From IMG/VR virus record IMGVR_UViG_3300043436_001870, positions 1-64,000 of that record: a stretch of DNA of 64,000 bases; one strand, written 5' to 3'. The DNA comes from a virus. A program made the position numbers and the translations under genes. Shown here in pieces: positions 14,883 through 64,000 of the stretch. The first letter of the stretch is position 1, and each line of letters begins with the position of its first letter. Under the pieces are notes generated by a model. It did no database searches and was not told the origin of the DNA. It saw only the letters and a program-made list of their open reading frames with translations.

Positions 14883-14887
14883 AATAT

Positions 14888-14999
14888 TCCCCAGTGCACT
14901 AACCAAATGGGTGGGCAGTTGTAATGAGCATGGATAAGCTCTTAATACTATACGCTTAAATGTGTGTCCTTATAGTATTACAACTAAGTGCATTGGGGA
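14888..14999 (+). ncRNA. structured RNA motif, compact copy
   Basis: 13-bp closing stem TCCCCAGTGCACT/AGTGCATTGGGGA, inner AGTTGTAA/TTACAACT stem and two hairpins; homologous to 15642..15924. Confidence 0.7.
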
Positions 15000-15040
15000 T
15001 TAACTTTAAATAGTACCCACAACCTTTAATATTAAACAAC

Positions 15041-15319
15041 ATGAAAGTAAGAACTCAAAAAGAACTTCTTGAGGTTATGCTGACTAACATAGGTAGTCTT
15101 AGATCAGGACTTTGTTTTCTTAGTAGTGAATTATTCACTCAAGGTATTATTACTTTTGACGAGCATATTGTTATTGGTAATTACATCATAGGCAACAAGC
15201 CTTCCATATTTAGTAGTTGTAATGCCTTCTGGAATGCTGGTAGCCGTTTCTATTGGACTAAAGGTGATGTTGAGCCACGTATCAAATGGCTAAAGCAACA
15301 TATTAAGAAACTATCATAA
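15041..15319 (+). CDS. hypothetical protein
   Basis: GLC...FYW...PRIKWL small phage protein pattern. Confidence 0.6.
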   Translation: MKVRTQKELLEVMLTNIGSLRSGLCFLSSELFTQGIITFDEHIVIGNYIIGNKPSIFSSCNAFWNAGSRFYWTKGDVEPRIKWLKQHIKKLS

Positions 15320-15519
15320 TGCCTAATCCTATGGATACTTCTTCTATTATTCCTATTCTATACTTCCTTATCATGACTATTATCTGTAGTATGGTAGCCG
15401 GCAGGCTGCTTATACTTGCAGATGAAAAGGATAGTCCTGTTCATTTTATTACAGGATGTATTGTTACAGCACTTGCTGTTTTTAATTTATGCGTACTTGT
15501 AGTTGCTATTATAGAATAG
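15319..15519 (+). CDS. small membrane protein
   Basis: two TM segments. Confidence 0.55.
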   Translation: MPNPMDTSSIIPILYFLIMTIICSMVAGRLLILADEKDSPVHFITGCIVTALAVFNLCVLVVAIIE

Positions 15520-15641
15520 TATTGTTGCCTTTTCTTTAACCAGGCATCTATCCAGTAAGCTGCTGGCGTGAGTTCAACACAGTACATAATGAATGTAGGC
15601 TGATATATCTGAATATATATCCATTAGGTAGTAATACCTGA

Positions 15642-15924
15642 TGATTTAATGCACCATAACCTGAGTGGATATAAAGACTTCTTATTAATCTGCAGCTCTA
15701 ACCAATTGGAAACAGCTACTTATCTTTTAAGATGTAAAACCACATGATTAATTAACAATGTACAACAGGTAAACTGCTCAGCCTGTGTATTAGCAGTAAG
15801 TACATAAGTTAATCAGCTCCCAAGATCAGGCAGTTGTAGTGGGTACCTAAATGGTAGCTAAAACCCTTAACATACCGTGAGCTTCTCGAAGTATGCTACA
15901 ACTGAGTGCAGAGGGGATAAATCA
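15642..15924 (+). ncRNA. structured RNA motif, expanded copy with pseudoknot insertion
   Basis: TGATTTA/TAAATCA, TGCAC/GTGCA, CCTGA/TCAGG and AGTTGTAG/CTACAACT stems; covaries with 14888..14999. Confidence 0.7.
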
Positions 15925-15953
15925 ATCAACTAAAAATTAATTCACACCAACCT

Positions 15954-16262
15954 ATGAGAAATGCCAAAGAAGAATTTTTACAGCATACTACTGGTAAAGT
16001 AGTTAAGTGTGCTCACATAGATTTAATTAATGCTGATTATAAGCTATATAACTTAGCTGATTTACCTGTTAATTATACACCGGAGAAACTAGATGTTTTT
16101 CTAAAAGCTCTTGACATCAGATATGACAGTGGCTATGGTTCACAAGAATTATTCGGAGTCATATGGTATATGGATGGTACATACTCTACAAGATGGGAGT
16201 ATGATGGTTCAGAAGGATGGGAGTATCATGCGTGTCCTACAATACCAGATAAACTTAAATGA
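15954..16262 (+). CDS. conserved phage hypothetical protein
   Basis: YDSGYGSQELFGVIW...RWEYDGSEGW motif. Confidence 0.7.
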   Translation: MRNAKEEFLQHTTGKVVKCAHIDLINADYKLYNLADLPVNYTPEKLDVFLKALDIRYDSGYGSQELFGVIWYMDGTYSTRWEYDGSEGWEYHACPTIPDKLK

Positions 16263-25064: not shown

Positions 25065-25263
25065 ATCTAAACCTTCTTGGAATACAGAAGACTTCTGTAG
25101 ATACTGTGACCTTGATACTCTAAAAGACATTGCTAAAGACAATGTATCAGATCCTGATGATGAGTATGAGTATGACAAAGTGTTTAATGAAATCTATATC
25201 AGTACAGGTATCTGCCGTCATTGTAAAGAAGAAGAGACGGCAGATTTCAGGGATGATGATTAA
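25030..25263 (+). CDS. small Zn-binding acidic protein
   Basis: CRYC and CRHC. Confidence 0.55.
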   Translation: MQNNLTKQTRSKSKPSWNTEDFCRYCDLDTLKDIAKDNVSDPDDEYEYDKVFNEIYISTGICRHCKEEETADFRDDD

Positions 25264-27132: not shown

Positions 27133-27223
27133 CCCCTGTTAGTGTAACCAGGAATAAATACTGGCATTGAGAGTAACACCAGTCATTATTGACTGAATGT
27201 GGGTTCGAATCCCACACAGGGAG
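27133..27223 (+). ncRNA. tRNA-like element with expanded D loop and non-canonical anticodon loop
   Basis: acceptor CCCCTGT/ACAGGGA, perfect T arm GTGGG-TTCGAAT-CCCAC, CAGTC-ATTATT-GACTG arm with 6-nt loop. Confidence 0.65.
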
Positions 27224-27226
27224 CTG

Positions 27227-49808: not shown

Positions 49809-52800
49809 TTATCTCCAATTTTGTGCTTTTACAAAGTTAGTTACTGCCATTGCAGGATCCAAAGATTTACCTGTTGCTCCAAATGATCTAGCTAAATATG
49901 TTAAGGGTTTATACCCTTCAATCGGATTATCAGTGCCTCCTTCCTGCATCCATACATATGGTCCTTCACGTTGATCAAAGTAGGCCTTTGAATCATCAGT
50001 ACCAAAAAGACTATGCATAGCACTTGTAGTTAAGCCTCCTATGATTTTCCCATAGTTGTCAAATGTATTGTGCATTGCAACTGAGTCAAACTTTAACATC
50101 TCTAGATAGTTACCACCAGTTAACCATTGTTGTTGTTCATTTTTTAAACCCATAGCCATCATCAATGCATGGTTAGATAACCAACCCATAAACTTAAAAT
50201 CTGTTTCAGTTTCTGATGTGCCTATGAATGGTAATGGTCCAGACTTCTTACGGAGTTTTTCAAACTTATCTGGATCATCATAATCAAATCCAAATATCAT
50301 TGATATTGATAATACAAGTAATGCTAAGCTTCCTACATCAACTAGTGATTTAATCACAGCAATTTTTTCAGAATCTGTTCTAGATCTATAGTAGTCACTA
50401 CCTTGTCTGATACTTCTTACAAGAAGTCTTAATGACTCAACGTGGTAACCCATTACTGTATCTCCTACTGCTGCATCAAATCTATATTGAGGATCTCTCC
50501 ATGAACCTCTAAACTGGAATCGATTTAAGAACATTCTTACAAACCATCTCTTGAATGCAATGATCCATTTGAATAGTAAGTATCTATCAGCATCAGCATA
50601 GTCAAACTTAGCAAATGAACCGGCCAGGTTATTTGTTACACCCTGTACCTTATTCTTAAATGCTTTGAATTTTTCTCCACCAACTCCCCATTCAGGATCT
50701 ACTCCTTCTTTAATTCTTATCTGACCATCTACAGTTTCCCATGCATCCATGTAGGGAATTCTTTCTGTTCTACCATTTACAGTTCTTTCTACGGTTTGAT
50801 GATACATCATGGCACCAAAGATTGAAACTGTTGAGTTTAATTCTGTCCATTTTCTAAAGCTAGTCATCCAACTCAAACCACCAAGGGCATCCTGTGCAAA
50901 GGATCTTGACATCTGCTCACCAAACTTTTCCTCAAATCTTCCCTGATATGCATCAAAGACCATGATCAATTGTTCATTATGAGTCTTTGGTTTACCTGTA
51001 TATAAGTTCATGCTGAGATCCATTGCTGCATTTGTTGCCCACAATTGACCTTTACCATAGTTAGCAGTATTAAAGTATCTACCTCCTGCTGCTTCAATCA
51101 TAGATTGAATTCTTAATGAGAAGTCATTCTTTAATGCTGATGGAATGTCTAATGCAAAATAACCAAAAGCAGAATACTTCATGATCTGCTGTGCTGTTTT
51201 TGTTACCCATCTTGCATCATTATCATTACCAAGAGCACCCTTTGCCATCACACCTTCAAATTCTCTTTCAATAAAGTTGTCTATAGCTCTTTGTCTTACT
51301 GATTTATCCTTCTGTTCCTGTTGCCAAAGAGCCTTCTGTTTAATATTATTAGCAATGTTTCTTGCTTTTATTTGGCTATTAGATATACCTTTCTGAATGT
51401 TTACATAGTTAGATGGATCATGTAGTACAGACTGTAAAGCTCGGGCCATTGGATTCATCTCAATCAGAGCTCTTTGTTTTTCAGCTGACAACATATATCT
51501 AAGCATACCTCCTACAACATCCAATGATACATCACTTACACCTAAGTCGGACAAACCATGAATAGGAATACCTGCATACTGATCATCATATAAATCTCCA
51601 TCCATAATCATTGATTGCTCTTCATAATTGAAGCCACGATCAAAGTCATCTGATGAACCTTTAAATAAATTTCTGACATTCCTCCACCATCCAGATATAG
51701 GATTTTCTGGTTTCTTATCTGCATTTAGGAAGTTCAGATTTCTTTCATAGTTACTAGTCATGAATCTTGGAATGTCCAAGAATAATTTAGATTGACTAGG
51801 ACTTCCCTCTTGAAATCTTAAATGATATTTAGAGAGAGCAAGAATAGCATCATAAAGAGGCTTATCATTCTTCTTAATATCAAAGAACTGTTGATTGATG
51901 AATCTATTATCAGGAGCATCAAGACGTGGTAAGTGTCTACCATAATTATCTACAGTAGCCAATGTAGGATCACCTTGTTCTAATGCCTCAAGCATTGTTA
52001 CTTCCTTTACAATATACTCATCCTTTACAATACGTTTGGTATACTGCTGTGAAGGAACACCAAGAACTGTTTCAGTTTCACCCTTAGAATTAGTAAATGT
52101 AAATGTCTCATAGTGTTTAGCATTGCTAGGTCTTGTGACATTCCATGCTCTTACTCTTGAGATCTTTGTTGTAGGTGCCCCTGTTTTATCTCGGGTCTGC
52201 TTCATTGTATGGTTTTCATCAAACCATGCCTTTACTTCAGGATATTTTGAGATAACTGTGTTATAGAATGTTGGATCAAGAATTTTATCTGCATTATCTG
52301 GAGTAATATCCTTAGAACCAATTGTATCTATAAGAGTTTTAATAGGAATAAGACTAAATATTGAATTGGCTGTATCAAGATAATAAACTGTAGGAACAGA
52401 CTGTCTCAATTCTGAGAGCTCGTTGTATAGTTCCATGATTCTTTGCTTGTCTGCCTTTGACAAACCATACAAGGATCTCTTATCCATAAGACTACTAAAT
52501 CTTGAAGACTCAAATTGATCTAGTCCTCTTGTAGATTTGATTTCAAATAAATCATTTAATTCCTGCTGCTCTAATTTAGTGAGACCGGTGATACCTATAA
52601 GAGCATCCTTAGCCTTTTCAATCTTCTCCTCAACAGCTTTAATTGCAGCAATGTTGTTTACACTCATTGCTGTACCATCTGGCTGCATATCCTCATCTCT
52701 ATAAGGATTAAGGAGCTGTCTCATTTCTTCATACAACTCATCAATCTTAATAGTAGCAGCAACAGTTGCAGGGAGTTTAGCTTTGATAGCATTGATCTCA

Positions 52801-55529
52801 TCCACTATTCTCTGCTGTTCTTGGTAGTAACTTTCCTTCAGTTGAATTCTTGTATTCTTTGCTATCCACTGAAGTCTGAGTTTATCCTTTACTTGTTGAG
52901 GATAGTTCTTTCTGCTAAGCTCATCCTCATATCTTGTAAGGGCATCTGTAAACAAGGTAGGCATGACCTCTGATGTATAGAAGTCCTTTGAGGCTTCTCT
53001 AAACTCTCTCAGTCTCTGTGCTATTGCAATTTCCTCAGGGCTCTTTAGTTGACCGGCTGCATTAAAATTTGAATGCATTAGTCTATACTCCTTCCATAAT
53101 ACATCAAGACCTTCAGTTACGGCCTTGTTTTCTTCCTCACTGTTTCTATCTACAGTAGTACTAAGGTTTTGAATTCTAGCAAGCAAATCTTTTCTTCTTG
53201 CCTCAGCTATAGGACCAACTGTATCATTATCATCCTTCTTAAATATTTTATATCTTTCATAATACTCTTTTACAAAAGGAGTATGAAAGTATGTTCTCAT
53301 GAAAATATCCTTCTCTAACTTGAGACGGATTGCTTCTGAGTCATCACCTGTTTGCTGAGCTTTTAATACGGCATCTTCAATGTCTTTGTCCATCTTAGCT
53401 GTTGCAGCTCTATAATCCTTGTAAGGATTGATGATGGTTCTCACTTCTTTGTCACTTGTAGTGCCACTTGCATCTCTTGCTGGTCTGCGATCAACAAATG
53501 TAATCTTTGCACCAAATGCTGCTGGATTGCTTTGATTGTATCCTGCTCTATCAAGTATTGGTTTTACATCACTAATAAAAGCATTACCTCTACTCTGTGC
53601 AGTAGTCATGACATCAGTTACTCTGTTCTTTACCCACATTGCAAATCCAAATACAATTGGATCCTGGTTATAAATGTAACCTTCCAAGAATGAATTTAAA
53701 GCACTGGCATCACCAATGTTACCCTGCATCAAATAATCAATTTTCTCTTCAGAGAGATATGCTCCTTTCTTAAAGGAGATTCTCTTAAGCTTCTCATAGT
53801 TCTCAGCAGCTACACCAGTAAGCTTTTCTCCTTTTTCAATTCTTTCTTTAAATGACAAGAATGCTTTTAGCTGATCTGGTTCAAGACCCCAGTAATCTTT
53901 CATACGGAGAAGTCTAGTTTGTTCAGATAAACCAAGTTTGTCTATATCTTGCATCAACTTCTTGTACTTATCATCAATGTACTGCTGCATTGGTTTCAAC
54001 TGAGTTTTAATTAACTCACTTGTACCATTGAAATATACCTTTCTTGTAGAGATCTTAGCTGTATCTATCTGACCCTTGATATTCTCTACCAATTCAAAAA
54101 TAGGATTCTCTGCCTCAATGTATCCATCTTGTTGAGCCTGTGCAAGAGTTTCCTTGAAATTATCAATGAAATTTTCCCATCCATTAAGAACATCATTGAA
54201 GTAGAATACAGTAGCAATATTATCCTTAGAATTTGGATCCTTTACAAGCCCAGTAATAGCACGGTTCATTTTAGTAGCCATACTTAATAGTCTGTCCAAA
54301 CTCTGAACAAATGCTGTAGTGTGACTTTGTGCAGTACGTATCTCCTGCATTATTTTGTCAATCTCCTGGGTTATAAAAGTAGTTGCATCCTGAAATGGTG
54401 TAAGGTTTCTTTTAATTTCCTCAAGGTCATTTCTATTATACTTATCTTTGATAATCTCAGCAGCAGCTGCATAGTCCTTGTTCTTTTGAATAAGACCTAA
54501 GTACTTATTCATTACAACATACATCTCATTAGTAGACTCAATGAGTGCATTCTTTGGTAAGTTATCTAACCCCTGTATTACTTCTTGTAGGTCAGTATAG
54601 TATTTGACTACATCTTCTTCAGACACAGCATCTAGATCAAGAATAAACTTGTCTAGAACAAGCATGTCTGCTAGTTGATCTAATGTGGTGTCTACACTTA
54701 ACTTCTCAATGGTAATCTTTTCCTCCTTGCCAAAAATCTTTCTTAAGATTTGGCGGATTGCATATAGAATATCAGAGATGAACTTATTAAAGGCACTGTC
54801 TTTCTTCTCTACTGCAGCTTCAGTAAGAGCCATTACTAATAGCTCTTCCATAATAACAGGATCGTCCTCTGCTAATTCAGGGTAAGCTTGTTTAGCTGCC
54901 TCAAGAAGTTTTGGACCCATTGATGTCTGAAGTACCTGGCTAACCAGTTTATCAAACAATGGTTTATTAGATAACTGAATTGCTCTAATTACAGGGTGAG
55001 CAAACTCGTGGAATGCAGTCTTCTCTGTAATCAAATTAGGAATTACATATACTCTCCCCTGAAAGAAGAATGCTGGCTGACCTTTCCATGGATTGGCAGA
55101 ACCTGCTGTAATTTCTGCAGCTGTCTCTGCTGTAATAACATCATAAGGAATACTTGTACTCTGACTTAAAGCAAAAAGAAACTGAGTCATTCTTGCTGTT
55201 ACCTTAAGACTACCCTGTGACTTTGCATCAAGAGTAATAGGATTAACAATTGTACTGTATGCTGGATCTGTATTTATTGATGTTTGAAATCCATTATACA
55301 TAGCACCAAGTGGTACATTCTTTAATCCCGGAGCATGAATTGCTAATGTCTCAAGCATGTCATTAAACTGCTCAATTGTAGGAATCTCTATATCCTCACC
55401 AGCTTGTTTGTTCTGGTTAATTGTAAGATATGCACGTTTTACTTCCTGCTCTGCTATTTCAGCAAGACCAATTGATTTAGCATATTCAATAAGGGGATCA
55501 AGCACCCCAGGCATAGGACAAGCTACCAT
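49809..55529 (-). CDS. giant virion (ejection/vRNAP-associated) protein with zincin-like motif
   Basis: 1906 aa; FHEFAH...EEL HExxH motif near N-terminus; hydrophobic C-terminal segments; adjacent to vRNAP. Confidence 0.75.
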   Translation of the reverse strand: MVACPMPGVLDPLIEYAKSIGLAEIAEQEVKRAYLTINQNKQAGEDIEIPTIEQFNDMLETLAIHAPGLKNVPLGAMYNGFQTSINTDPAYSTIVNPITLDAKSQGSLKVTARMTQFLFALSQSTSIPYDVITAETAAEITAGSANPWKGQPAFFFQGRVYVIPNLITEKTAFHEFAHPVIRAIQLSNKPLFDKLVSQVLQTSMGPKLLEAAKQAYPELAEDDPVIMEELLVMALTEAAVEKKDSAFNKFISDILYAIRQILRKIFGKEEKITIEKLSVDTTLDQLADMLVLDKFILDLDAVSEEDVVKYYTDLQEVIQGLDNLPKNALIESTNEMYVVMNKYLGLIQKNKDYAAAAEIIKDKYNRNDLEEIKRNLTPFQDATTFITQEIDKIMQEIRTAQSHTTAFVQSLDRLLSMATKMNRAITGLVKDPNSKDNIATVFYFNDVLNGWENFIDNFKETLAQAQQDGYIEAENPIFELVENIKGQIDTAKISTRKVYFNGTSELIKTQLKPMQQYIDDKYKKLMQDIDKLGLSEQTRLLRMKDYWGLEPDQLKAFLSFKERIEKGEKLTGVAAENYEKLKRISFKKGAYLSEEKIDYLMQGNIGDASALNSFLEGYIYNQDPIVFGFAMWVKNRVTDVMTTAQSRGNAFISDVKPILDRAGYNQSNPAAFGAKITFVDRRPARDASGTTSDKEVRTIINPYKDYRAATAKMDKDIEDAVLKAQQTGDDSEAIRLKLEKDIFMRTYFHTPFVKEYYERYKIFKKDDNDTVGPIAEARRKDLLARIQNLSTTVDRNSEEENKAVTEGLDVLWKEYRLMHSNFNAAGQLKSPEEIAIAQRLREFREASKDFYTSEVMPTLFTDALTRYEDELSRKNYPQQVKDKLRLQWIAKNTRIQLKESYYQEQQRIVDEINAIKAKLPATVAATIKIDELYEEMRQLLNPYRDEDMQPDGTAMSVNNIAAIKAVEEKIEKAKDALIGITGLTKLEQQELNDLFEIKSTRGLDQFESSRFSSLMDKRSLYGLSKADKQRIMELYNELSELRQSVPTVYYLDTANSIFSLIPIKTLIDTIGSKDITPDNADKILDPTFYNTVISKYPEVKAWFDENHTMKQTRDKTGAPTTKISRVRAWNVTRPSNAKHYETFTFTNSKGETETVLGVPSQQYTKRIVKDEYIVKEVTMLEALEQGDPTLATVDNYGRHLPRLDAPDNRFINQQFFDIKKNDKPLYDAILALSKYHLRFQEGSPSQSKLFLDIPRFMTSNYERNLNFLNADKKPENPISGWWRNVRNLFKGSSDDFDRGFNYEEQSMIMDGDLYDDQYAGIPIHGLSDLGVSDVSLDVVGGMLRYMLSAEKQRALIEMNPMARALQSVLHDPSNYVNIQKGISNSQIKARNIANNIKQKALWQQEQKDKSVRQRAIDNFIEREFEGVMAKGALGNDNDARWVTKTAQQIMKYSAFGYFALDIPSALKNDFSLRIQSMIEAAGGRYFNTANYGKGQLWATNAAMDLSMNLYTGKPKTHNEQLIMVFDAYQGRFEEKFGEQMSRSFAQDALGGLSWMTSFRKWTELNSTVSIFGAMMYHQTVERTVNGRTERIPYMDAWETVDGQIRIKEGVDPEWGVGGEKFKAFKNKVQGVTNNLAGSFAKFDYADADRYLLFKWIIAFKRWFVRMFLNRFQFRGSWRDPQYRFDAAVGDTVMGYHVESLRLLVRSIRQGSDYYRSRTDSEKIAVIKSLVDVGSLALLVLSISMIFGFDYDDPDKFEKLRKKSGPLPFIGTSETETDFKFMGWLSNHALMMAMGLKNEQQQWLTGGNYLEMLKFDSVAMHNTFDNYGKIIGGLTTSAMHSLFGTDDSKAYFDQREGPYVWMQEGGTDNPIEGYKPLTYLARSFGATGKSLDPAMAVTNFVKAQNWR

Positions 55530-58500
55530 TTACTTAAAGCATTTATTATTAAACTCAGCAATTTCTTCATCTGTTACAGGAGCACCATATTGTACAACAA
55601 TACGTCCTTCACCAAAAGTCAAGTAGTGAGGATTGATATATCCAAACTTCTCAAATAATTGTTGTGAAAGATACAAAAAGGTTTGGACACCTATGGTTGT
55701 TTTATCAGCATACTGTGCATCAGCAGCTGCCGGGAAGTATTCATTGTAACCAATGAGGTACTGACCATATCCATTAGAATCAAATGCAAGGTTGACACCA
55801 GATTCTTTCTTCTCCATAAGAGCAGCAATGTCTTCATCAATCATTGCTTTGTTCTCTTTAAGAGTAGCATCTGTCCATGCAGCCTTAGCATTGAAGTCCT
55901 TGATCTTACCTTCCTTAGCTTGAGAGACACGTGGTAATGATTTAGTTCTTATACCCAAAGAATTGTCACCCATAGCTCTGTAAACAACATTAGTACCAGC
56001 TGTATCTCTACTTTGTGTTGATGCTTCATTCCTCACAAATATTGTATTAGGATAGTCAACACTTAGCTGTATAGCATTCTGATCTGTTAGTTTATCAAAC
56101 TGATTAACTACCTTTTTGGTTTTTTCATCTGTGCTTGTAAGGAGGTTGAATGTAAGTACACCTGTAGATGTATCCTGCAGCAATTCAAACAAAGTTAAAG
56201 TCTGAATATCACCAACTCTTTTCTTATTTGTAGACTTACTGATTTTACCAGCAACTACTTTTTTAGAACCAAAGTCACCGTTCCATTCAATGTTTTGACC
56301 CCCCGATTGACCATTTCTATTTAGAGCATAAGCAATGTTTGTCGCTCTAGATAAAGCTACATACTTTAATTGGTTTTTTTCTTCTAGGGAAACAGGTGCC
56401 TCAATAATTGACTCTGTATCTACAAACACATTTGTATATGTTGATCCTTGTGACTTATGAATAGTATGAGCATAGCCATAGTCTATTGACTTTTTAAGAA
56501 CTACTCTACCTTTTTTATCCGTAACGTCAAATGGAGTCATTATAGAATCTTTCAATCCACTGTATATTGCAAATGCTTGATTTGCTCTTAGCTCTCCTGA
56601 TTCAACCTGAGCATCTAAAGATTTTTGATATTCAACCAGTTTCTGAGCAAGAAGATTAATAATTTCTTGAGAGGTGCTTCTACTTAATACAAACTTCTCA
56701 TATATATCACCATCACCATCTATTTCTTGTAGTTGTATTGTATATCCAGTTAGTTCAAGACCTCCTAGACCATTAAATGTCATTTTATTTTCTGCTTGAA
56801 CGGATAGTACTTCATAATCAACAGAGTTATTTATTTGAAATGTTCCACCTTTTTTATAGCCTACATTTTCATATGCCATAATAATGTCACCTATAACATA
56901 TTCTAGAATCTTAGACGTATCTACTTCTTTATCAAACCAGATTTTGTTTCTTACAACCTGGTTAAAATCCTCTACCCTTTCATTAGAATGTGACAATATT
57001 CTTACAAAGTTTCTATTGTTCTTAAAGTTTTCAGACTTAAAAGCAGCAATAGCTTGTCTTGTGAAATCAACTCCAGTCTTTGTTGTAACAATGCCTTGAT
57101 TACCAGAAAGTTCTGTTTTAGCATCTATAGCTGATGTATCCTTTTTCTGATTATTACGAATGTCTTCAAGTATAGGACCTAATGGATTTGATCCAGCTTG
57201 TCTTTCTACTTTAGTCAGTTCATACTTATAGGGATGATCAAATGCTTTAGATCTCTTAGAGGTAGTCTTATCTTCCTCTACAGGATTAAGCTGTGCAGGA
57301 TCTCCAATGAATAAGATCTTTGTTTTACCTTCTCCAGCATAATCAGACAGAGCATCAAATAACTCATCACCTACAAGTGAAGCCTCATCTACAATTACTA
57401 CATCAGGTTTATAAAGAGATTCTTTTTGTACAGTTAACTTAATTTTACGAAGGTCTGTCTTAGTAAGCTTAGATGAGCTACCAAGACCTAGAAGCTTCTG
57501 TAATGTCACAGCTCCTGTCTTTGCTAGTTTGGCAATTACCTTCTTAGCTTTATGAGTAGGTGCTGTTACATTAATAGAGAGACCTCTTTGTCTCATGTAC
57601 TCAAGGGCAATCTTTGTGATACTTGATTTACCTGTACCAGCATAACCCATCAGAGTAAATACATCCTGGTTAGGATTATCAATGAAGTCAGCAATCTGCT
57701 GCAATGCTTCAAGCTGTTGATCATTAGGTGTAAATGGTATATCAAGCTTATCAAGATTTAGATTAATACCATTTATTGTAACAATACGACCAGGAGTCTC
57801 TTCCTCTGTTTCAAGTGGTGTTTCTAATTCAGATACAGTGTCATCTGTAATTCTAACAATATCTGAAGGTATTCCCTCAGGATTAAATGCGTAGTTCTTA
57901 AGCTTGTTACTTACATTCTTATTGTCAATTCTATACTGATTATTAAACAATGATGTATACTCATCAAGAACAGTATTAGGTCTAGCCTTTAGATCAGTAA
58001 GAAACTTATCATAGGATGACTTAAGAAGACCATAGAACATATCATTAGGAACAGCTCTGATTAAGCTGAACGCAGATGTAGTATCAATACCTGTCTGAAG
58101 TAATGCATATAAACCAAATCTTGCAAATACCTTTGAGATTCTTTCATTCTCAATTGGATCTTCTACCTTAATTACATTAGGGTCAGCTAGTTCTTCAATC
58201 TGCTGAGTATATAGATCAAGTTCTTCAGGTGTAGGTCTGTCACCAGTAAACTTAAGGTTGTTAATAGTAACCTCTTGTTTCTTACCATCATTGGTTACAA
58301 ATGATGATCCTCCTGTACTAATCTCAAGTCTATCAAGAACCTCATACTTGTCTAAAAGTGATGGGTTCTCCTTACCAATTTCAAGTACTTGCTTAGCATA
58401 AGATCTACCACCAAAGAACATGTGTCCATGGTAGTTGAGATTATCCAAAGCCATATCTCTTAGAGTAGCCTCATAAGCTTTAAATGCTGGCTTTGAATCA

Positions 58501-61500
58501 TTCTTGAATGTATTTAGATGCGTCTTATAGATAGATGAGTTCTTTAAGTTTTCTGGACTATTCTTCTCAAAAGATCTTAGGACTTCTCTTTCATATACAA
58601 ACTTAGTATAGAGAGCCTCAGCTGTCTTAGCATCATACAATGCAAATACAGATGACTCCACAGGTGCTACCTCGTTCTCCCACATAGAATCTTTAGAATA
58701 CAATTCCTGTTGGAAAGTTGTAAGGATATCAGACTTACTTGCATACAAGATACCATTTTTTACTCTTGCTCCGGCACGAAGATATGTGACACCTTCAATA
58801 GGAACTTGTACTTCAAATCCTCTGTATACACCTTGTGTCTGATTGAATCTATAGTAATTAGATTGGAATACATAGTTAATCAAATCACTTCTGAATCTTT
58901 CAATGTACTCATCAGCATCAAGACCAGTCATCTTCTTATATGCAGATATAGGAGGCATACCCGAGATATCCTTATCAGTAAGGGATGCTATTTTTCTATT
59001 TACCTCCTTGCTATCTCTTAATGGGAATAGGTCACTGAATAAATCAAGGATGAAGTCTTGAATCTTGTAGGCAGACACCGGTGAATTTTCAATGATGTTC
59101 TGAATAGACTCGGGCTCAATACCATTAGCAAGGTCATCAATCTTAGCTAGTCTTAATCTAGCATCAAGAAGTGTCTCTGTCTTAGTACGGTCAAAGTTCA
59201 AGTTCTGAGTAAGCTGAGTAATCTGTGAAGACATCTCACTTATTTCAAGGAAGTGAAGGAATACAGAACGGTCATAATTATCAAAATCATTTGACTTATT
59301 AAGACGGCCTGCTAGGTCTGCTTTCTTAAACTCACCTATACCTTCTACAAGTCTATCAATTTCTTCAAAAACAAGTCTCTTACTAGGCTTCTTGTTCTTA
59401 TACTTGGAGGTAGAATCCTTATCAGACTTCTCTTGGAAATCTGCTACAAGCCAGTTAAAGCCATACTTATTATCACCCTTATCAGCAAATAGTATACGGT
59501 CTCTTGCCTCATTTCTAAAGAAGTTACCTACATCACCATAGCCAATAGCTCTAGAGTACTGACTCTTAAACTTACGTTGCTCCTTAACAAAGTCACGTAT
59601 GATTGGTTGAGACAAGAAGTATACGGCATCCTCAACAGGTACACCTGCCATGGTCATAAAGAGAAGACTGTTAATCAGCTCCTTGTTACCCTGAACATCA
59701 AAGATCCATGCTTTCTTAGCCACGTCAACAGAACCGTTGATCAATTGGCTGATAATGTCTGAGATCTTGTTTAACTGTTCGGCATCATAATTTGCTGATA
59801 ATGTTATACTATCACCTATCTTGTTGTGTGCAAACTTCAGTCTTTGTGGGTGCTCTACCGAACCTCTTTGAGTCTGAGTAATAATACGATTCTTTGTAAG
59901 AACCAAACCTGATCTACCAAAGATTGATTGAAATGTATTTACAACTGCAATGATACCTAGTACATCCTTCCCTACGTTGTTTGACTGATGCTTATATAGG
60001 TTTCTTCCTACCTCAAATATTTCAGAAAGTCCTTTAGCCTTCTGTGTGCCTGCTCCTTTAGTTTCTTTAGCAATAGTCTCACCCAACGGTTCCATAGTGT
60101 CCGTTGTATTAGGTGTAATAAGACTGCTGAAGTTAAATGGATCAAGAAGAATATCCTTGATTACACCTAGAAGTTGGTTTTCAAGACCGGCCTTATCATC
60201 ACCAAAGTTCATTACTGCAGAGGTCTTGTCTTCATAGTAAGTATCAATAGCTCTAAGTATATCTTTCTCCTCTTCTGTAAGAGTAGAGATGTCTAGATCT
60301 TCACCTAGTTGAACTAATTCTTTTATTTCATTGACTATAGCAGCATCAATTCCAAAACCAAGAATATCAGATATTAAAGCATAGTCTTCCTCATTAACCT
60401 CTCTCTTTGTTTTGATGGTTGGGAAGAAGGTAAACATCTTATCAATGTCAAAGTCACCACCAGACTTAGCAACAATCTCTGCAGGAAGAATAACAATGTT
60501 ACCTGACTCCTCTGGAAGGAATTCAAACACCTCCATGACCTCCATAGAGTTTAGACCTTGAACTGGGATACGTACAGCAGCAGTTGTTACCATTGCTCTG
60601 TTGTCCCCTTGGTTCAACCACCACTCCTGCTTTATAAGATGATTTAATGCATCCAGTCTAGTTACTCCATTCTCATTAGAGTATTTTACTACATCAGCAT
60701 GATTTAGTAAGTTCTTAAATGGACCTTGTAAGGATATCTTGATCTTCATTGCTGATACAGATATCACATTACCTTTCTTATCTAATTTAGGATTATAGAA
60801 TGGTAGACCATTTGTACCACCATATCTTCCTATTTCTTCTTCTGTAGCTGTTCTTAATCTACCTTGTTCAAATCCTACTCCAGATACTTGTACTAATGAT
60901 TCACCAGTTAATTTCTGATTAAGTATTCTCTTCTGAGCAATGTTTACAAGAGCTCTTTCAATTACATCTGCTGATGGAGATAAGTCTAGATCTCTTAACA
61001 GAGTATCTGTAGCTTCATCTACACCTAAGAAGTCTACCTCATGCTCAGACAGTTTCTTACCTGGGCCAGACAATTCACTCTTAATGAATTCAATCAGACT
61101 TTTCTTAGTAGAACCTACCTGATCTCTGATTTTCTGTTTCTCAATCTCTACAAGACTGTCTAGAATCTTTTCAAATCTAGATGCATATCTAGCAAACTTT
61201 GTAGAAAGCTTATCATTCTCAGCATTCCAGAGTCTGTATCTTTCATTCTTGTCTGCTATATTTGGTTTGTAATCTACAGGAACCTTATTTTCAAATAGAC
61301 CCTGCTCAATTAATTTACGTAGCTGAGAAGAGAATGTAACTTTCTTTTTGTAATACTCAGCTACTTCTAACTGATCCTTGAAGTAATCAAGGAAAACAGT
61401 ATTCTTTGTAAACTGATAAGTTGGTGCATCAAATGCATAACCCTCAGTTGTTCTTTGATTATCATTGTAGAACTTATCTGCCTTACCATCTTTAGTAATA

Positions 61501-64000
61501 GTGCTAACCTTAGACCCTGACTGCATCAATGCATAGTCAATATCCTGGTCAACCATTTTGTTATGAAGGTTTTCTAATGGAGTATTCTTGATAACACTTG
61601 GAATCAACGGCATCAATGAGTATTTGTGGAATGCTGTTGCAGGTAATCCTGTACCCATAAGTGGGCCCCAATACTGCATCTTTTTAACTGGGAAGAAGTT
61701 TAGCACATCATCCATGGCTACTTCTTCACCCTTCACAATCTTGTTATATAGAAACTCCTGATTAGGTGTCCATTTATTCAATGACATCAATAATGCTCTA
61801 TAAGCATCAAAGCTGATCCAACCCTGACCATCTGCTTCAGTCATCTCAGTATACTTAGAGAATACTTTTTTAATAGATGCCTCGGCTTTAGCAACAGTTT
61901 CTGGACTTGCATTTACTTTCTTTAGACGGTCCTTCTCAATCTTGAGAGCTGCTTCTAAATACGTATCATAGTAAATTGATTTACTTACAACATCCTGCAT
62001 TACTGCAGAGTTCATAGTATTACCAAATGATGCTCTTGTCTTACCTCTTGTAGCAGCATAACTGACCTGAGCAAACTTGCTGTCAATATATGCCGTCATT
62101 GCTGGACCTGTTCTAGCAAAGTCACCGGTTGCTGCAATACCAGCATTACGTTTAAAGAAGTCATCTACATTCTTGTAGAGAGCTGGGTCACCATAGAACA
62201 TTACACTAAACTCATACTTATGGATCCAGTCATTAGCTGTATATCCATCAATAAGAGCCGTAATCATTTTTTCTCTTCGTTCAGCAGTAAGTCCGTTGAT
62301 AACATCCTTAGGTGATCTTTCTGAATCACCTGTCTCAAGCTTTTCCAAAAGACTGTTTATCACACCAGTATTACTCAGGATGCCACTTTCCTGAAGCATT
62401 TTAGCATTCTTCTGTCTTTGCTCAGTAAGATAATCTGTAATGTCTGTTTGTAATAAATTCTTGAGATCAAGATTACCATCAACAAACTTTAGAAACTGTT
62501 CTGATGTTTGCACCTCAGGACTTGTAGCTAACTGTTCCTTAAGGTTAGTAATTGTCTCGGGCTTAAGTATACCATTAAATATTACAAAGTCTTGAGCAAC
62601 TTCACCATAGGTTTTATCACCAACAGTTACTGTTGCCGATGGATCTCCATTCTTAAGTTTTTGTATACGTTCAAACTCTGAAGACAGGTACCCAATTAGT
62701 GTATCTGCAAATTCAGTTTTACCACCAGCAGTCTTAAAGTTTTTTAGATCAATGTAATGTAACTTACCATTAAGTAACTTGTACAATAATGTAGTAGCCT
62801 TGTCTGCATGTCGGGTTGCCTCAGTAGCACCGTACAGAGTAAGCATCAAGAAATCTCCTACAAGCTTTGTTGTTTCATCAGCAGAGGATGCATCAATACC
62901 ACTACGTTCCATTATGTTACGTGTGTTGGTATATTGATTCATGAACCCAGCCATGTTATTAAGCTGAATAGAAACAGGAACTTGCTGACCACTACTAGAA
63001 TCTTTATAAGTTCTTCTTACACCATTTTCATCAAAGGTTGATTTATATATGATGGTTGATTTTACAAATGGATTTCTAGAAGGACTAAGATGACTCATGC
63101 TTAAATCATTGGCATTAGGCACACCTTCCTGAGTAAGCTCTGTAATAGATTTAGCTCTATTCCATTTACCAATCTGATTAGATATAGTACTTCTTAATGA
63201 TCTTTCTTGCTGGCTTTGATTGTTTGCATTGTTTACTGTAGTATCTGCAAAATCATCAGACCATTTTAATTGGAACTTCTGTAATCCGTTGTATATACCA
63301 GAACCACCACCAAGAACTTGTCTTACAGAAACTTGTTCAATCTTTTTAGGAAGCTTATATGCTGAATCTGATTTATAGTTCTTATATATATCTGATGGTG
63401 CCTGAATTTTTATAGGATTTAATAGACCATCCTTTGATTTGTTATAGGCATAAATTGCCTGTAGGTAGTCCATGGTACGTTTACCATAGTTAGCAAGGCC
63501 TGACTTATAAGCATCAGCCTTAGCTGATTTACCATCTTCTAATACAATACCTATGCTATCAAAAAACTTATAGATATCATCTATATTGTCTTTTGTAAAT
63601 TTAGTATTTCGGAATTGTCTATAAACAGCATTAACATTTAGAATATTATTACCATAGATGTCTTTAGTAATATATTCTCCTTCATCTGCAATAGCAAAGT
63701 TATCATTCCATCTTCTTCCTACTTTTCTGAACTCACCAGTTGCCTCAACAGGACTTACAATATAGGATGTTTCTTTACGTCCAAATCCTCCTTGAACATC
63801 CTGAATAAATCTATCAGTCTGCTTAAGTTCAAGCATTCTCAGATTAATTCTAGGCATTGTCAGAATCTTTGTAAAGTCAGTCCAAAGATTCACTGATGCT
63901 TCATCTAAGTTCTGTGGAGAACCTATCTTGCTCATTAATTCCTTAATAATAGGATAGTCTTCAGCAGCAAGCTTTAACTTCTCATAAACTTCATTATCTG
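55530..64000 (-). CDS. virion RNA polymerase (crAss-like gp66 type) fused to C-terminal RecD/Dda-like SF1 helicase; 5' end outside window
   Basis: ADGQGW, RIPVQG, GGDFDIDK (60438-60461); helicase GYAGTGKS, IVDEAS, IGDPAQL, HKSQGST, YVALSRA; frame stays open from 63935 to 64000. Confidence 0.88.
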   Translation of the reverse strand, partial: DNEVYEKLKLAAEDYPIIKELMSKIGSPQNLDEASVNLWTDFTKILTMPRINLRMLELKQTDRFIQDVQGGFGRKETSYIVSPVEATGEFRKVGRRWNDNFAIADEGEYITKDIYGNNILNVNAVYRQFRNTKFTKDNIDDIYKFFDSIGIVLEDGKSAKADAYKSGLANYGKRTMDYLQAIYAYNKSKDGLLNPIKIQAPSDIYKNYKSDSAYKLPKKIEQVSVRQVLGGGSGIYNGLQKFQLKWSDDFADTTVNNANNQSQQERSLRSTISNQIGKWNRAKSITELTQEGVPNANDLSMSHLSPSRNPFVKSTIIYKSTFDENGVRRTYKDSSSGQQVPVSIQLNNMAGFMNQYTNTRNIMERSGIDASSADETTKLVGDFLMLTLYGATEATRHADKATTLLYKLLNGKLHYIDLKNFKTAGGKTEFADTLIGYLSSEFERIQKLKNGDPSATVTVGDKTYGEVAQDFVIFNGILKPETITNLKEQLATSPEVQTSEQFLKFVDGNLDLKNLLQTDITDYLTEQRQKNAKMLQESGILSNTGVINSLLEKLETGDSERSPKDVINGLTAERREKMITALIDGYTANDWIHKYEFSVMFYGDPALYKNVDDFFKRNAGIAATGDFARTGPAMTAYIDSKFAQVSYAATRGKTRASFGNTMNSAVMQDVVSKSIYYDTYLEAALKIEKDRLKKVNASPETVAKAEASIKKVFSKYTEMTEADGQGWISFDAYRALLMSLNKWTPNQEFLYNKIVKGEEVAMDDVLNFFPVKKMQYWGPLMGTGLPATAFHKYSLMPLIPSVIKNTPLENLHNKMVDQDIDYALMQSGSKVSTITKDGKADKFYNDNQRTTEGYAFDAPTYQFTKNTVFLDYFKDQLEVAEYYKKKVTFSSQLRKLIEQGLFENKVPVDYKPNIADKNERYRLWNAENDKLSTKFARYASRFEKILDSLVEIEKQKIRDQVGSTKKSLIEFIKSELSGPGKKLSEHEVDFLGVDEATDTLLRDLDLSPSADVIERALVNIAQKRILNQKLTGESLVQVSGVGFEQGRLRTATEEEIGRYGGTNGLPFYNPKLDKKGNVISVSAMKIKISLQGPFKNLLNHADVVKYSNENGVTRLDALNHLIKQEWWLNQGDNRAMVTTAAVRIPVQGLNSMEVMEVFEFLPEESGNIVILPAEIVAKSGGDFDIDKMFTFFPTIKTKREVNEEDYALISDILGFGIDAAIVNEIKELVQLGEDLDISTLTEEEKDILRAIDTYYEDKTSAVMNFGDDKAGLENQLLGVIKDILLDPFNFSSLITPNTTDTMEPLGETIAKETKGAGTQKAKGLSEIFEVGRNLYKHQSNNVGKDVLGIIAVVNTFQSIFGRSGLVLTKNRIITQTQRGSVEHPQRLKFAHNKIGDSITLSANYDAEQLNKISDIISQLINGSVDVAKKAWIFDVQGNKELINSLLFMTMAGVPVEDAVYFLSQPIIRDFVKEQRKFKSQYSRAIGYGDVGNFFRNEARDRILFADKGDNKYGFNWLVADFQEKSDKDSTSKYKNKKPSKRLVFEEIDRLVEGIGEFKKADLAGRLNKSNDFDNYDRSVFLHFLEISEMSSQITQLTQNLNFDRTKTETLLDARLRLAKIDDLANGIEPESIQNIIENSPVSAYKIQDFILDLFSDLFPLRDSKEVNRKIASLTDKDISGMPPISAYKKMTGLDADEYIERFRSDLINYVFQSNYYRFNQTQGVYRGFEVQVPIEGVTYLRAGARVKNGILYASKSDILTTFQQELYSKDSMWENEVAPVESSVFALYDAKTAEALYTKFVYEREVLRSFEKNSPENLKNSSIYKTHLNTFKNDSKPAFKAYEATLRDMALDNLNYHGHMFFGGRSYAKQVLEIGKENPSLLDKYEVLDRLEISTGGSSFVTNDGKKQEVTINNLKFTGDRPTPEELDLYTQQIEELADPNVIKVEDPIENERISKVFARFGLYALLQTGIDTTSAFSLIRAVPNDMFYGLLKSSYDKFLTDLKARPNTVLDEYTSLFNNQYRIDNKNVSNKLKNYAFNPEGIPSDIVRITDDTVSELETPLETEEETPGRIVTINGINLNLDKLDIPFTPNDQQLEALQQIADFIDNPNQDVFTLMGYAGTGKSSITKIALEYMRQRGLSINVTAPTHKAKKVIAKLAKTGAVTLQKLLGLGSSSKLTKTDLRKIKLTVQKESLYKPDVVIVDEASLVGDELFDALSDYAGEGKTKILFIGDPAQLNPVEEDKTTSKRSKAFDHPYKYELTKVERQAGSNPLGPILEDIRNNQKKDTSAIDAKTELSGNQGIVTTKTGVDFTRQAIAAFKSENFKNNRNFVRILSHSNERVEDFNQVVRNKIWFDKEVDTSKILEYVIGDIIMAYENVGYKKGGTFQINNSVDYEVLSVQAENKMTFNGLGGLELTGYTIQLQEIDGDGDIYEKFVLSRSTSQEIINLLAQKLVEYQKSLDAQVESGELRANQAFAIYSGLKDSIMTPFDVTDKKGRVVLKKSIDYGYAHTIHKSQGSTYTNVFVDTESIIEAPVSLEEKNQLKYVALSRATNIAYALNRNGQSGGQNIEWNGDFGSKKVVAGKISKSTNKKRVGDIQTLTLFELLQDTSTGVLTFNLLTSTDEKTKKVVNQFDKLTDQNAIQLSVDYPNTIFVRNEASTQSRDTAGTNVVYRAMGDNSLGIRTKSLPRVSQAKEGKIKDFNAKAAWTDATLKENKAMIDEDIAALMEKKESGVNLAFDSNGYGQYLIGYNEYFPAAADAQYADKTTIGVQTFLYLSQQLFEKFGYINPHYLTFGEGRIVVQYGAPVTDEEIAEFNNKCFK

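Follow-up and report, generated by a model that had tools for sequence, protein, structure and literature searches.

A twister-type RNA family of phages, with a probable self-cleaving form and an apparently non-cleaving derivative at one locus

The stretch of DNA analysed here (the window, 64,000 nt) comprises positions 1 to 64,000 of the 113-kb virus record IMGVR_UViG_3300043436_001870, whose genes include those for a helicase, a DnaB-like protein and a metallopeptidase. Reading the sequence together with its ORF list places two related elements, both on the + strand, in the gene-free gaps 14883-15040 (copy 1, 14887-15000) and 15520-15953 (copy 2, 15639-15928), which are the only sizeable ORF-free intervals in a run of small co-oriented ORFs. 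Two small ORFs (15041-15519) lie between the copies, about 120 nt of gene-free sequence outside the ribozyme model (15520-15638) precedes copy 2, and an ORF at 15954-16262 follows it. The sole tRNA in the window, a tRNA-Leu with anticodon GAG, is at 27133-27224.

An earlier note on this DNA had reported two structured elements with shared stems, together with a list of compensatory changes between them, and the sequence bears out both claims: every listed change is present, and a pattern for the shared stem (a 9-nt stem word, 40-70 nt, an 8-nt return word) matches 14916-14985 and 15831-15903 and no other site in the window or the 113-kb record. At the ninth pair of this long stem copy 1 has A-U where copy 2 has G-C, and each copy has two inner hairpins that pair perfectly and differ in sequence. 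A covariance model built from relatives of the two copies (R1) and searched against the 113-kb record finds copy 2 at 24.6 bits and copy 1 at 21.6 bits, all remaining matches having E>0.2. Those remaining matches (at 25176, 46797, 33438 and elsewhere) were rejected as further genomic copies; the ones inspected look like chance, some sitting within long ORFs and that at 25176 lacking the CCCAAG loop. Both elements are built of inverted repeats, and copy 2 matches the stem pattern on the minus strand as well, features that would fit chance inverted repeats, a miniature transposon or a terminator. We regard any such origin as extremely improbable: none of 100 dinucleotide-preserving shuffles matches the stem pattern, the genome holds two copies only, promoter and terminator motifs around the window copies do not rise above shuffles, with no T-run terminator among them, and hundreds of homologs covary.

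Searches of the window, its region and 11 related loci against Rfam 15 leave the elements undetected at the gathering threshold and at E<=10, in agreement with the earlier description of an unrecognised RNA; weak matches to SNORA20 and the Trp leader are at chance level. A collection of phage genomes from GenBank holds no DNA similar to the elements, and the literature that we searched contains no description of the variant family. The IMG/VR phage contigs that contain the family number several hundred. A pattern of exact words from both copies matches 99 IMG/VR stretches, whose flanks gave a fuller consensus, and a second pattern, consisting of the 5' core and the loop with the long stem left free, matches more than 120; each of three word patterns matches about 100 or more stretches. 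The smallest members are ~60 nt. The long stem covaries as a helix and differs greatly in length; among 139 elements gathered with its sequence left free, 76 share the commonest 10-bp version of its base, with many compensated alternatives besides, and its interiors are highly heterogeneous, with 1 to 5 hairpins and no common motif.

Because the alignments were gathered with word patterns, conservation of the pattern words is partly built in. In our alignment of 34 sequences (A1), 92% of cells are paired; column shuffles give 80% and sliding the partners gives 31-46%, and the observed pairing is reached in 0 of 500 shuffles. Stem P2 is 100% paired, P4 98.8% and the pseudoknot T1 99%, with P1 weak at 71%; both-sided changes occur in all five P4 pairs and in nine of the ten pairs of the long stem, and T1 changes from C:G to A:U in 4 of the 34 sequences. 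The columns of the catalytic G and A 3' of P2, and of the U, CCC and AA of loop L4, are invariant. A relaxed parse of 108 elements, in which the first base of the UAA was left unconstrained, nevertheless has UAA in 108 of 108, the CCA/UGG version of T1 in 7 and both-sided changes in P2 in 7, and RNAalifold arrives independently at P2, P4 and the base of the long stem. This upholds the earlier proposal that the RNA is structured, its junctions conserved and its stems covarying, with one exception: the UUAA junction, which is indeed common to both copies, lies within the long stem and is not a feature of the family.

The fold described by these columns is that of the type-P1 twister ribozyme (Roth et al. 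2014, as reviewed in PMC5408937; Rfam RF03160). Both have, in order, P1, U^AA, P2, a P4 hairpin with a U-CCC-AA-G loop, the P2 return strand, G-A-GGG and the P1 return strand, and both form T1 between CCC and GGG, the compensatory CCA/UGG variant being found also in a canonical twister of one related locus. In the family and in copy 2, the essential stems come in the order P1-P2-P4-P2'-P1', the P1-P2 junction contains the scissile N-A step and the A that follows it, T1 joins L4 to the purine run 3' of P2 by three pairs, and the general-base G, the A beside it and the U, CCC and AA of L4 are all retained. Copy 1 has P2, a mere remnant of P4, no N-A step of this kind, a nested helix instead of T1, U-U at the catalytic positions and no L4. 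The weakly paired P1 is dispensable in twister (PMC5408937). Canonical twisters may also carry an optional stem between P4 and the P2 return strand, in the P5 position, and we infer that the long variable stem of the family is its counterpart, because PMC5408937 puts P3 on the other side of P4. The twister-like words that had been pointed out in copy 2 are thus real, its loop and core matching the RF03160 consensus; the accompanying view that the twister fold is not fully matched gives way once the pairing of L4 with GGG is recognised, and what had been called an unrecognised family is a variant of twister, not a wholly new class. The HDV-like CTRA word that was also proposed is irrelevant, as it consists of the end of the P5-position stem plus a junction A, and no HDV-like model matches.

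The family nonetheless departs from type-P1 twister in several respects. Where the canonical ribozyme has GC after P2, contacting two bulged L4 bases to form T2, the family has CC. The first of these Cs finds a local partner in the base that precedes the P2 return strand, giving P2 five pairs instead of exactly four, and this fifth pair (17:116) is supported both by RNAalifold and by covariation: 7 elements in differing contexts change it from C:G to U:A, a single G-U being the exception. An L4 G is within reach of the second C alone, and as neither base varies this is a candidate T2 contact; at most one or two long-range T2 pairs are left in the family. The fifth pair occupies the end of P2 away from the cut, where T2 stacks in the canonical fold (PMC5408937), and it appears that a local pair has replaced the first T2 pair. 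Compared with canonical twisters, L4 is one base shorter and is not closed by the invariant G-C pair, there is no P3, the P5-position stem is always present with a largely fixed 10-bp base, and a subfamily carries a two-stem insert in L4, a site for which PMC5408937 gives no optional stem. The family goes undetected by the Rfam twister models: RF03160, RF03154 and RF02684 leave the elements without a match both at the gathering threshold and at E<=10. For the active twister fold no tertiary contact is as critical as T2, and the length of P2 matters (PMC5408937); because these departures in T2 and P2 are real, we file the family as a twister variant and not as a plain member. Twister-sister (RF02681; Weinberg et al. 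2015, per PMC5408937) resembles the family in its multi-way junction, its occurrence in phage-rich sequence and its vague likeness to twister, but it cuts the opposite strand and has no pseudoknot (PMC5408937), whereas the family has U^AA and a covarying T1; RF02681 does not match the elements at E<=10. At the locus with the canonical twister mentioned above (L027:855-923; RF03160, 48.5 bits against a gathering score of 67.2), that ribozyme lies 110 nt upstream of a variant element, and this phage therefore uses canonical and variant forms in tandem.

Copy 2 keeps the entire catalytic core. The 5' strand of P1 (15639-15646), which pairs with 15920-15928, leads into the predicted scissile step U15647/A15648 and A15649; then come the 5' strand of P2 (15650-15654), C15655, a junction (15656-15659) and the 5' strand of P4 (15660-15664), with P2 and P4 placed by their covariation. 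L4 (15818-15825) and the 3' strand of P4 (15826-15830) are assigned from sequence and alignment, C15819-C15821 pairing with G15913-G15915 as T1 and C15655 and G15824 being the candidate T2 bases. The P5-position stem (15831-15839/15896-15904, spanning 15831-15904) encloses hairpins 15841-15866 and 15871-15895 with UUAA between them. The element closes, over 15905-15928, with A15905, the 3' strand of P2 (15906-15910), G15911, A15912, the T1 bases 15913-15915 and the 3' strand of P1, and alignment to the Rfam twister-P1 consensus makes G15911 the equivalent of the twister general base. Taken as a whole, copy 2 does not stand far above shuffles in its fold (z = -1.1). Its last L4 base is A, not G, as in two other parsed members, and either this substitution or the presence of a 153-nt insert within the loop that builds the active site could impair folding. 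With this core in place copy 2 is most likely an active self-cleaving ribozyme, and the earlier guess of a ribozyme looks sensible.

The insertion of ~160 nt that had been reported in copy 2 is there, at 153 nt (15665-15817), between the 5' strand of P4 and the L4 loop. It comprises two stems, arm A (15665-15743), whose base stem 15665-15668/15740-15743 is followed by a conserved internal loop (15669-15678 and 15733-15739), and arm B (15745-15751/15809-15815). Dozens of contigs carry this module, which a strict parse finds in at least 21 elements. In these the arm A base stem covaries through three pair combinations, the internal loop is near-invariant (its 5' side is the same in 18 of the 21), and beyond it come a short second stem and a variable tip; arm B is an 8-bp stem with four compensated variants, again with a variable tip. 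Hairpins with a loop word like that of the tRNA T-arm are found within the variable tips of two insert-bearing relatives (L038 and L213). Of 29 IMG/VR occurrences of the module's signature word, the twister 5' core precedes 26 and the L4 loop follows 25, so that the module was seen almost only inside the twister-type ribozyme. A single-sequence fold of the copy 2 insert does not recover the comparative stems (z -0.3), a result of little weight in so AU-rich a region. By inspection, a hammerhead core within the insert is rejected, the CUGAU word lacking the essential G and no GAAA being in register, and the internal loop of arm A seems a poor fit to the defining base order of a K-turn, a loop-E or an 11-nt receptor. 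Both the L4 module and the P5-position stem are peripheral expansions whose basal parts are conserved and whose tips vary freely. UAA is intact in 20 of the 21 insertion-type elements and GAGGG in 19, which speaks for continuing selection on their catalysis. The module may be a sensor or a protein-binding domain that gates twister folding, which would make insertion-type elements natural allosteric ribozymes, a proposal that we put forward as a long shot.

Copy 1 is of a different kind, and treating the two copies as equivalents, as had been done, does not survive the comparison, since only copy 2 keeps the catalytic core. Copy 1 by itself is far more stable than shuffles (MFE -42 kcal/mol, z = -4.5), and folding, sequence reading and its relatives agree on a three-way junction, a form that we call type B. 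The closing helix is formed by 14889-14899 and 14988-14998, strands that covary in relatives; it is nested and 11 bp long, made of the five P2 pairs and six pairs that take the place of T1. A UAA junction (14900-14902), a mini-hairpin of CC/GG with a 4-nt loop (14903-14910) that is a remnant of P4, and a second junction (14911-14915) follow, an architecture conserved in 16 parsed type-B elements. The P5-position stem (14916-14924/14978-14986, spanning 14916-14986), in which the closing C-G pair is broken by A14986, encloses hairpins 14926-14941 and 14946-14977 with UUAA between them. Copy 1 has no U-A cut site, paired bases preceding P2 instead, and neither the L4 loop nor the catalytic G-A, the family G-A plus GGG having become U-U plus GGGG. 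In its closest relative (L258), whose upstream gene end is 94% identical, an AA x GA internal loop is retained at the place where the window has A-U and G-U pairs, and because of this the catalytic G-A of the window copy can be said to have mutated so as to zip up the helix.

Two pattern searches of IMG/VR find the type-B form in ~40 contigs. The purine run after P2 there pairs with a pyrimidine run directly 5' of P2 to make one continuous helix, and in the 16 parsed members changes in the purine run are matched in the pyrimidine run, with many G-U pairs; 6 of the 16 mini-hairpins have a GNRA or UUCG loop. We conclude from these features that copy 1 would be unable to act as a twister and is probably maintained as a stable three-way junction that presents the P5-position stem. 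Colinearity of the two forms suggests that type B, and copy 1 with it, descends from the cleaving form, type A. In hammerhead ribozymes, non-circular permutations show that a pseudoknot of one form can be a nested helix in another, and a search for unknown rearrangements of twister gave no promising candidate (PMC10085705). The copy 1 form likewise turns T1 into a nested helix, but type B lacks the scissile dinucleotide, the bases beside P2 are in many members paired (UU with GA) or mutated, and there is no conserved active site, so we reject a non-circular permutation of twister; the best reading of type B, in which the active site is not kept, is a derivative that has lost its function.

That derivatives unable to cleave are conserved means that cutting is not essential to the role of the scaffold, and this raises a serious rival, in which the whole family is a structured scaffold with no need for self-cleavage, a protein-binding or decoy RNA acting through the P5-position stem and the L4 arm, for which the twister-like core, active or not, is only a folding platform. 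Type-B elements would fit such a role, in that they keep P2, the P5-position stem and a stabilised mini-hairpin under a covarying closing helix; so too would the fixed P5 base word in 76 of 139 elements, which is more than a plain helix needs, and the invariance of the arm A internal loop in 18 of 21 elements. Two type-A elements (L014 and L051) and one of type B (L312) carry the same P5 interior, which can be read as one arm being used on both scaffolds and which suggests recent conversion or exchange of the arm. We judge this rival unlikely, since type-A and insertion-type elements keep every twister catalytic base, which a mere scaffold would not require; the absence of a motif common to the P5 interiors also speaks against it, as does the lack of any evident partner protein, the flanking ORFs varying between loci and belonging to no known family. 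Both elements belong to a twister-type phage RNA family absent from Rfam, and we consider it probable that copy 2 cleaves and copy 1 cannot.

Elements of the family lie outside ORFs in 106 of 108 cases and on the strand of the surrounding genes, with ORF coverage within 1.5 kb of 37% on the same strand and 8% on the opposite one, and the G-U pairs in their stems point to selection at the RNA level. ORFs flanking the elements gave no known function either. The two small ORFs between the window copies are absent from the relative closest to copy 1 (L258:677-950). There, the same upstream gene end and a type-B element are followed ~240 nt further on by a second element, which lacks its 5' half, with no ORFs between, whereas the window has 970 nt and two ORFs between the matching anchors; the difference could reflect gain or loss of a cassette at repeated elements. 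This comparison is compatible with a mainly DNA-level role, in which the conserved words would be boundaries where recombination exchanges small gene cassettes among phages and the two copies would mark the ends of an inserted cassette at 15041-15519. Of the 8 type-B elements that have a downstream neighbour, 6 have an insertion-type element within the next 1.5 kb, a count in which relatedness is uncontrolled; these pairs occur at L012, L038, L056, L258, L330 and in the window, and at L038 the predicted cut site of the next element is a few bases past the type-B helix. A purely DNA-level role leaves unexplained the compensatory changes, the G-U pairs and the co-orientation with genes, all of which show selection on the RNA strand. 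The cassette ORF at 15041-15319 has no relatives that we could detect in viral contigs, so its movement is untraceable, and recombination at repeats would in any case be a side effect compatible with an RNA function. We hold this explanation to be very doubtful.

On the minus strand of the window two giant ORFs adjoin (49809-55529 and 55530-63935; 1906 and 2801 aa), the 1906-aa one with no match in Pfam. We take them to resemble the giant proteins of crAss-like phages. Together with the helicase, DnaB-like and metallopeptidase genes they lend the record a crAss-like appearance; the phages of the family look crAss-like. Among genome bins, two Chitinophagaceae MAGs contain true family matches, which hints weakly at Bacteroidota as the probable hosts. 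The family lives in RNA-rich islands: a RAGATH-1 hammerhead match (L032:2710-2795, 35.5 bits) abuts a variant element, a GOLLD-like RNA (L072:1538-1937, 100 bits against a gathering score of 150) and a freshwater-1 RNA (L058:71-132, 84.7 bits, above the gathering score) each share a short locus with an element, and tRNAs too are among the neighbours. Self-cleaving ribozymes are known to cluster near each other and near phage genes (PMC10085705, PMC6765202).

Returning to the twister-type reading, we propose that copy 2 would be transcribed with the + strand early genes and would fold co-transcriptionally, with P1, P2 and P4 stacking on one another and the CCC of L4 pairing with the GGG after P2. 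The RNA would then be cut between U15647 and A15648. Processing of transcripts is a role that has been suggested, never proven, for bacterial twisters (PMC6765202), and the biological role of twister is still called speculative (PMC5408937, PMC6765202). Cleavage of copy 2 would separate the message of the upstream small genes, which would end in a 2',3'-cyclic phosphate, from a downstream message (from ORF 15954-16262 onward) that would start with a 5'-OH and the folded ribozyme.

Few self-cleaving ribozymes are as widespread as twister, and the present analysis adds the type-B form, a fifth pair in P2 and the detailed layout of the L4 module. Together these suggest that the fold tolerates more change than its canonical form implies: the T2 contact can be largely replaced by a local base pair, and the loop that carries catalytic bases can host a conserved module of 150 nt. 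The gap in Rfam for this family affects the annotation of phage genomes. Phages repeatedly keep what appears to be a non-cutting version of the scaffold, and, if the L4 module does gate folding, the persistence of type B would show that the P5-position arm has a function of its own, kept after the death of the ribozyme. Lying between early genes and on their strand, the elements may offer a natural test system for the role of ribozymes in phage transcripts and for the regulation of twister.
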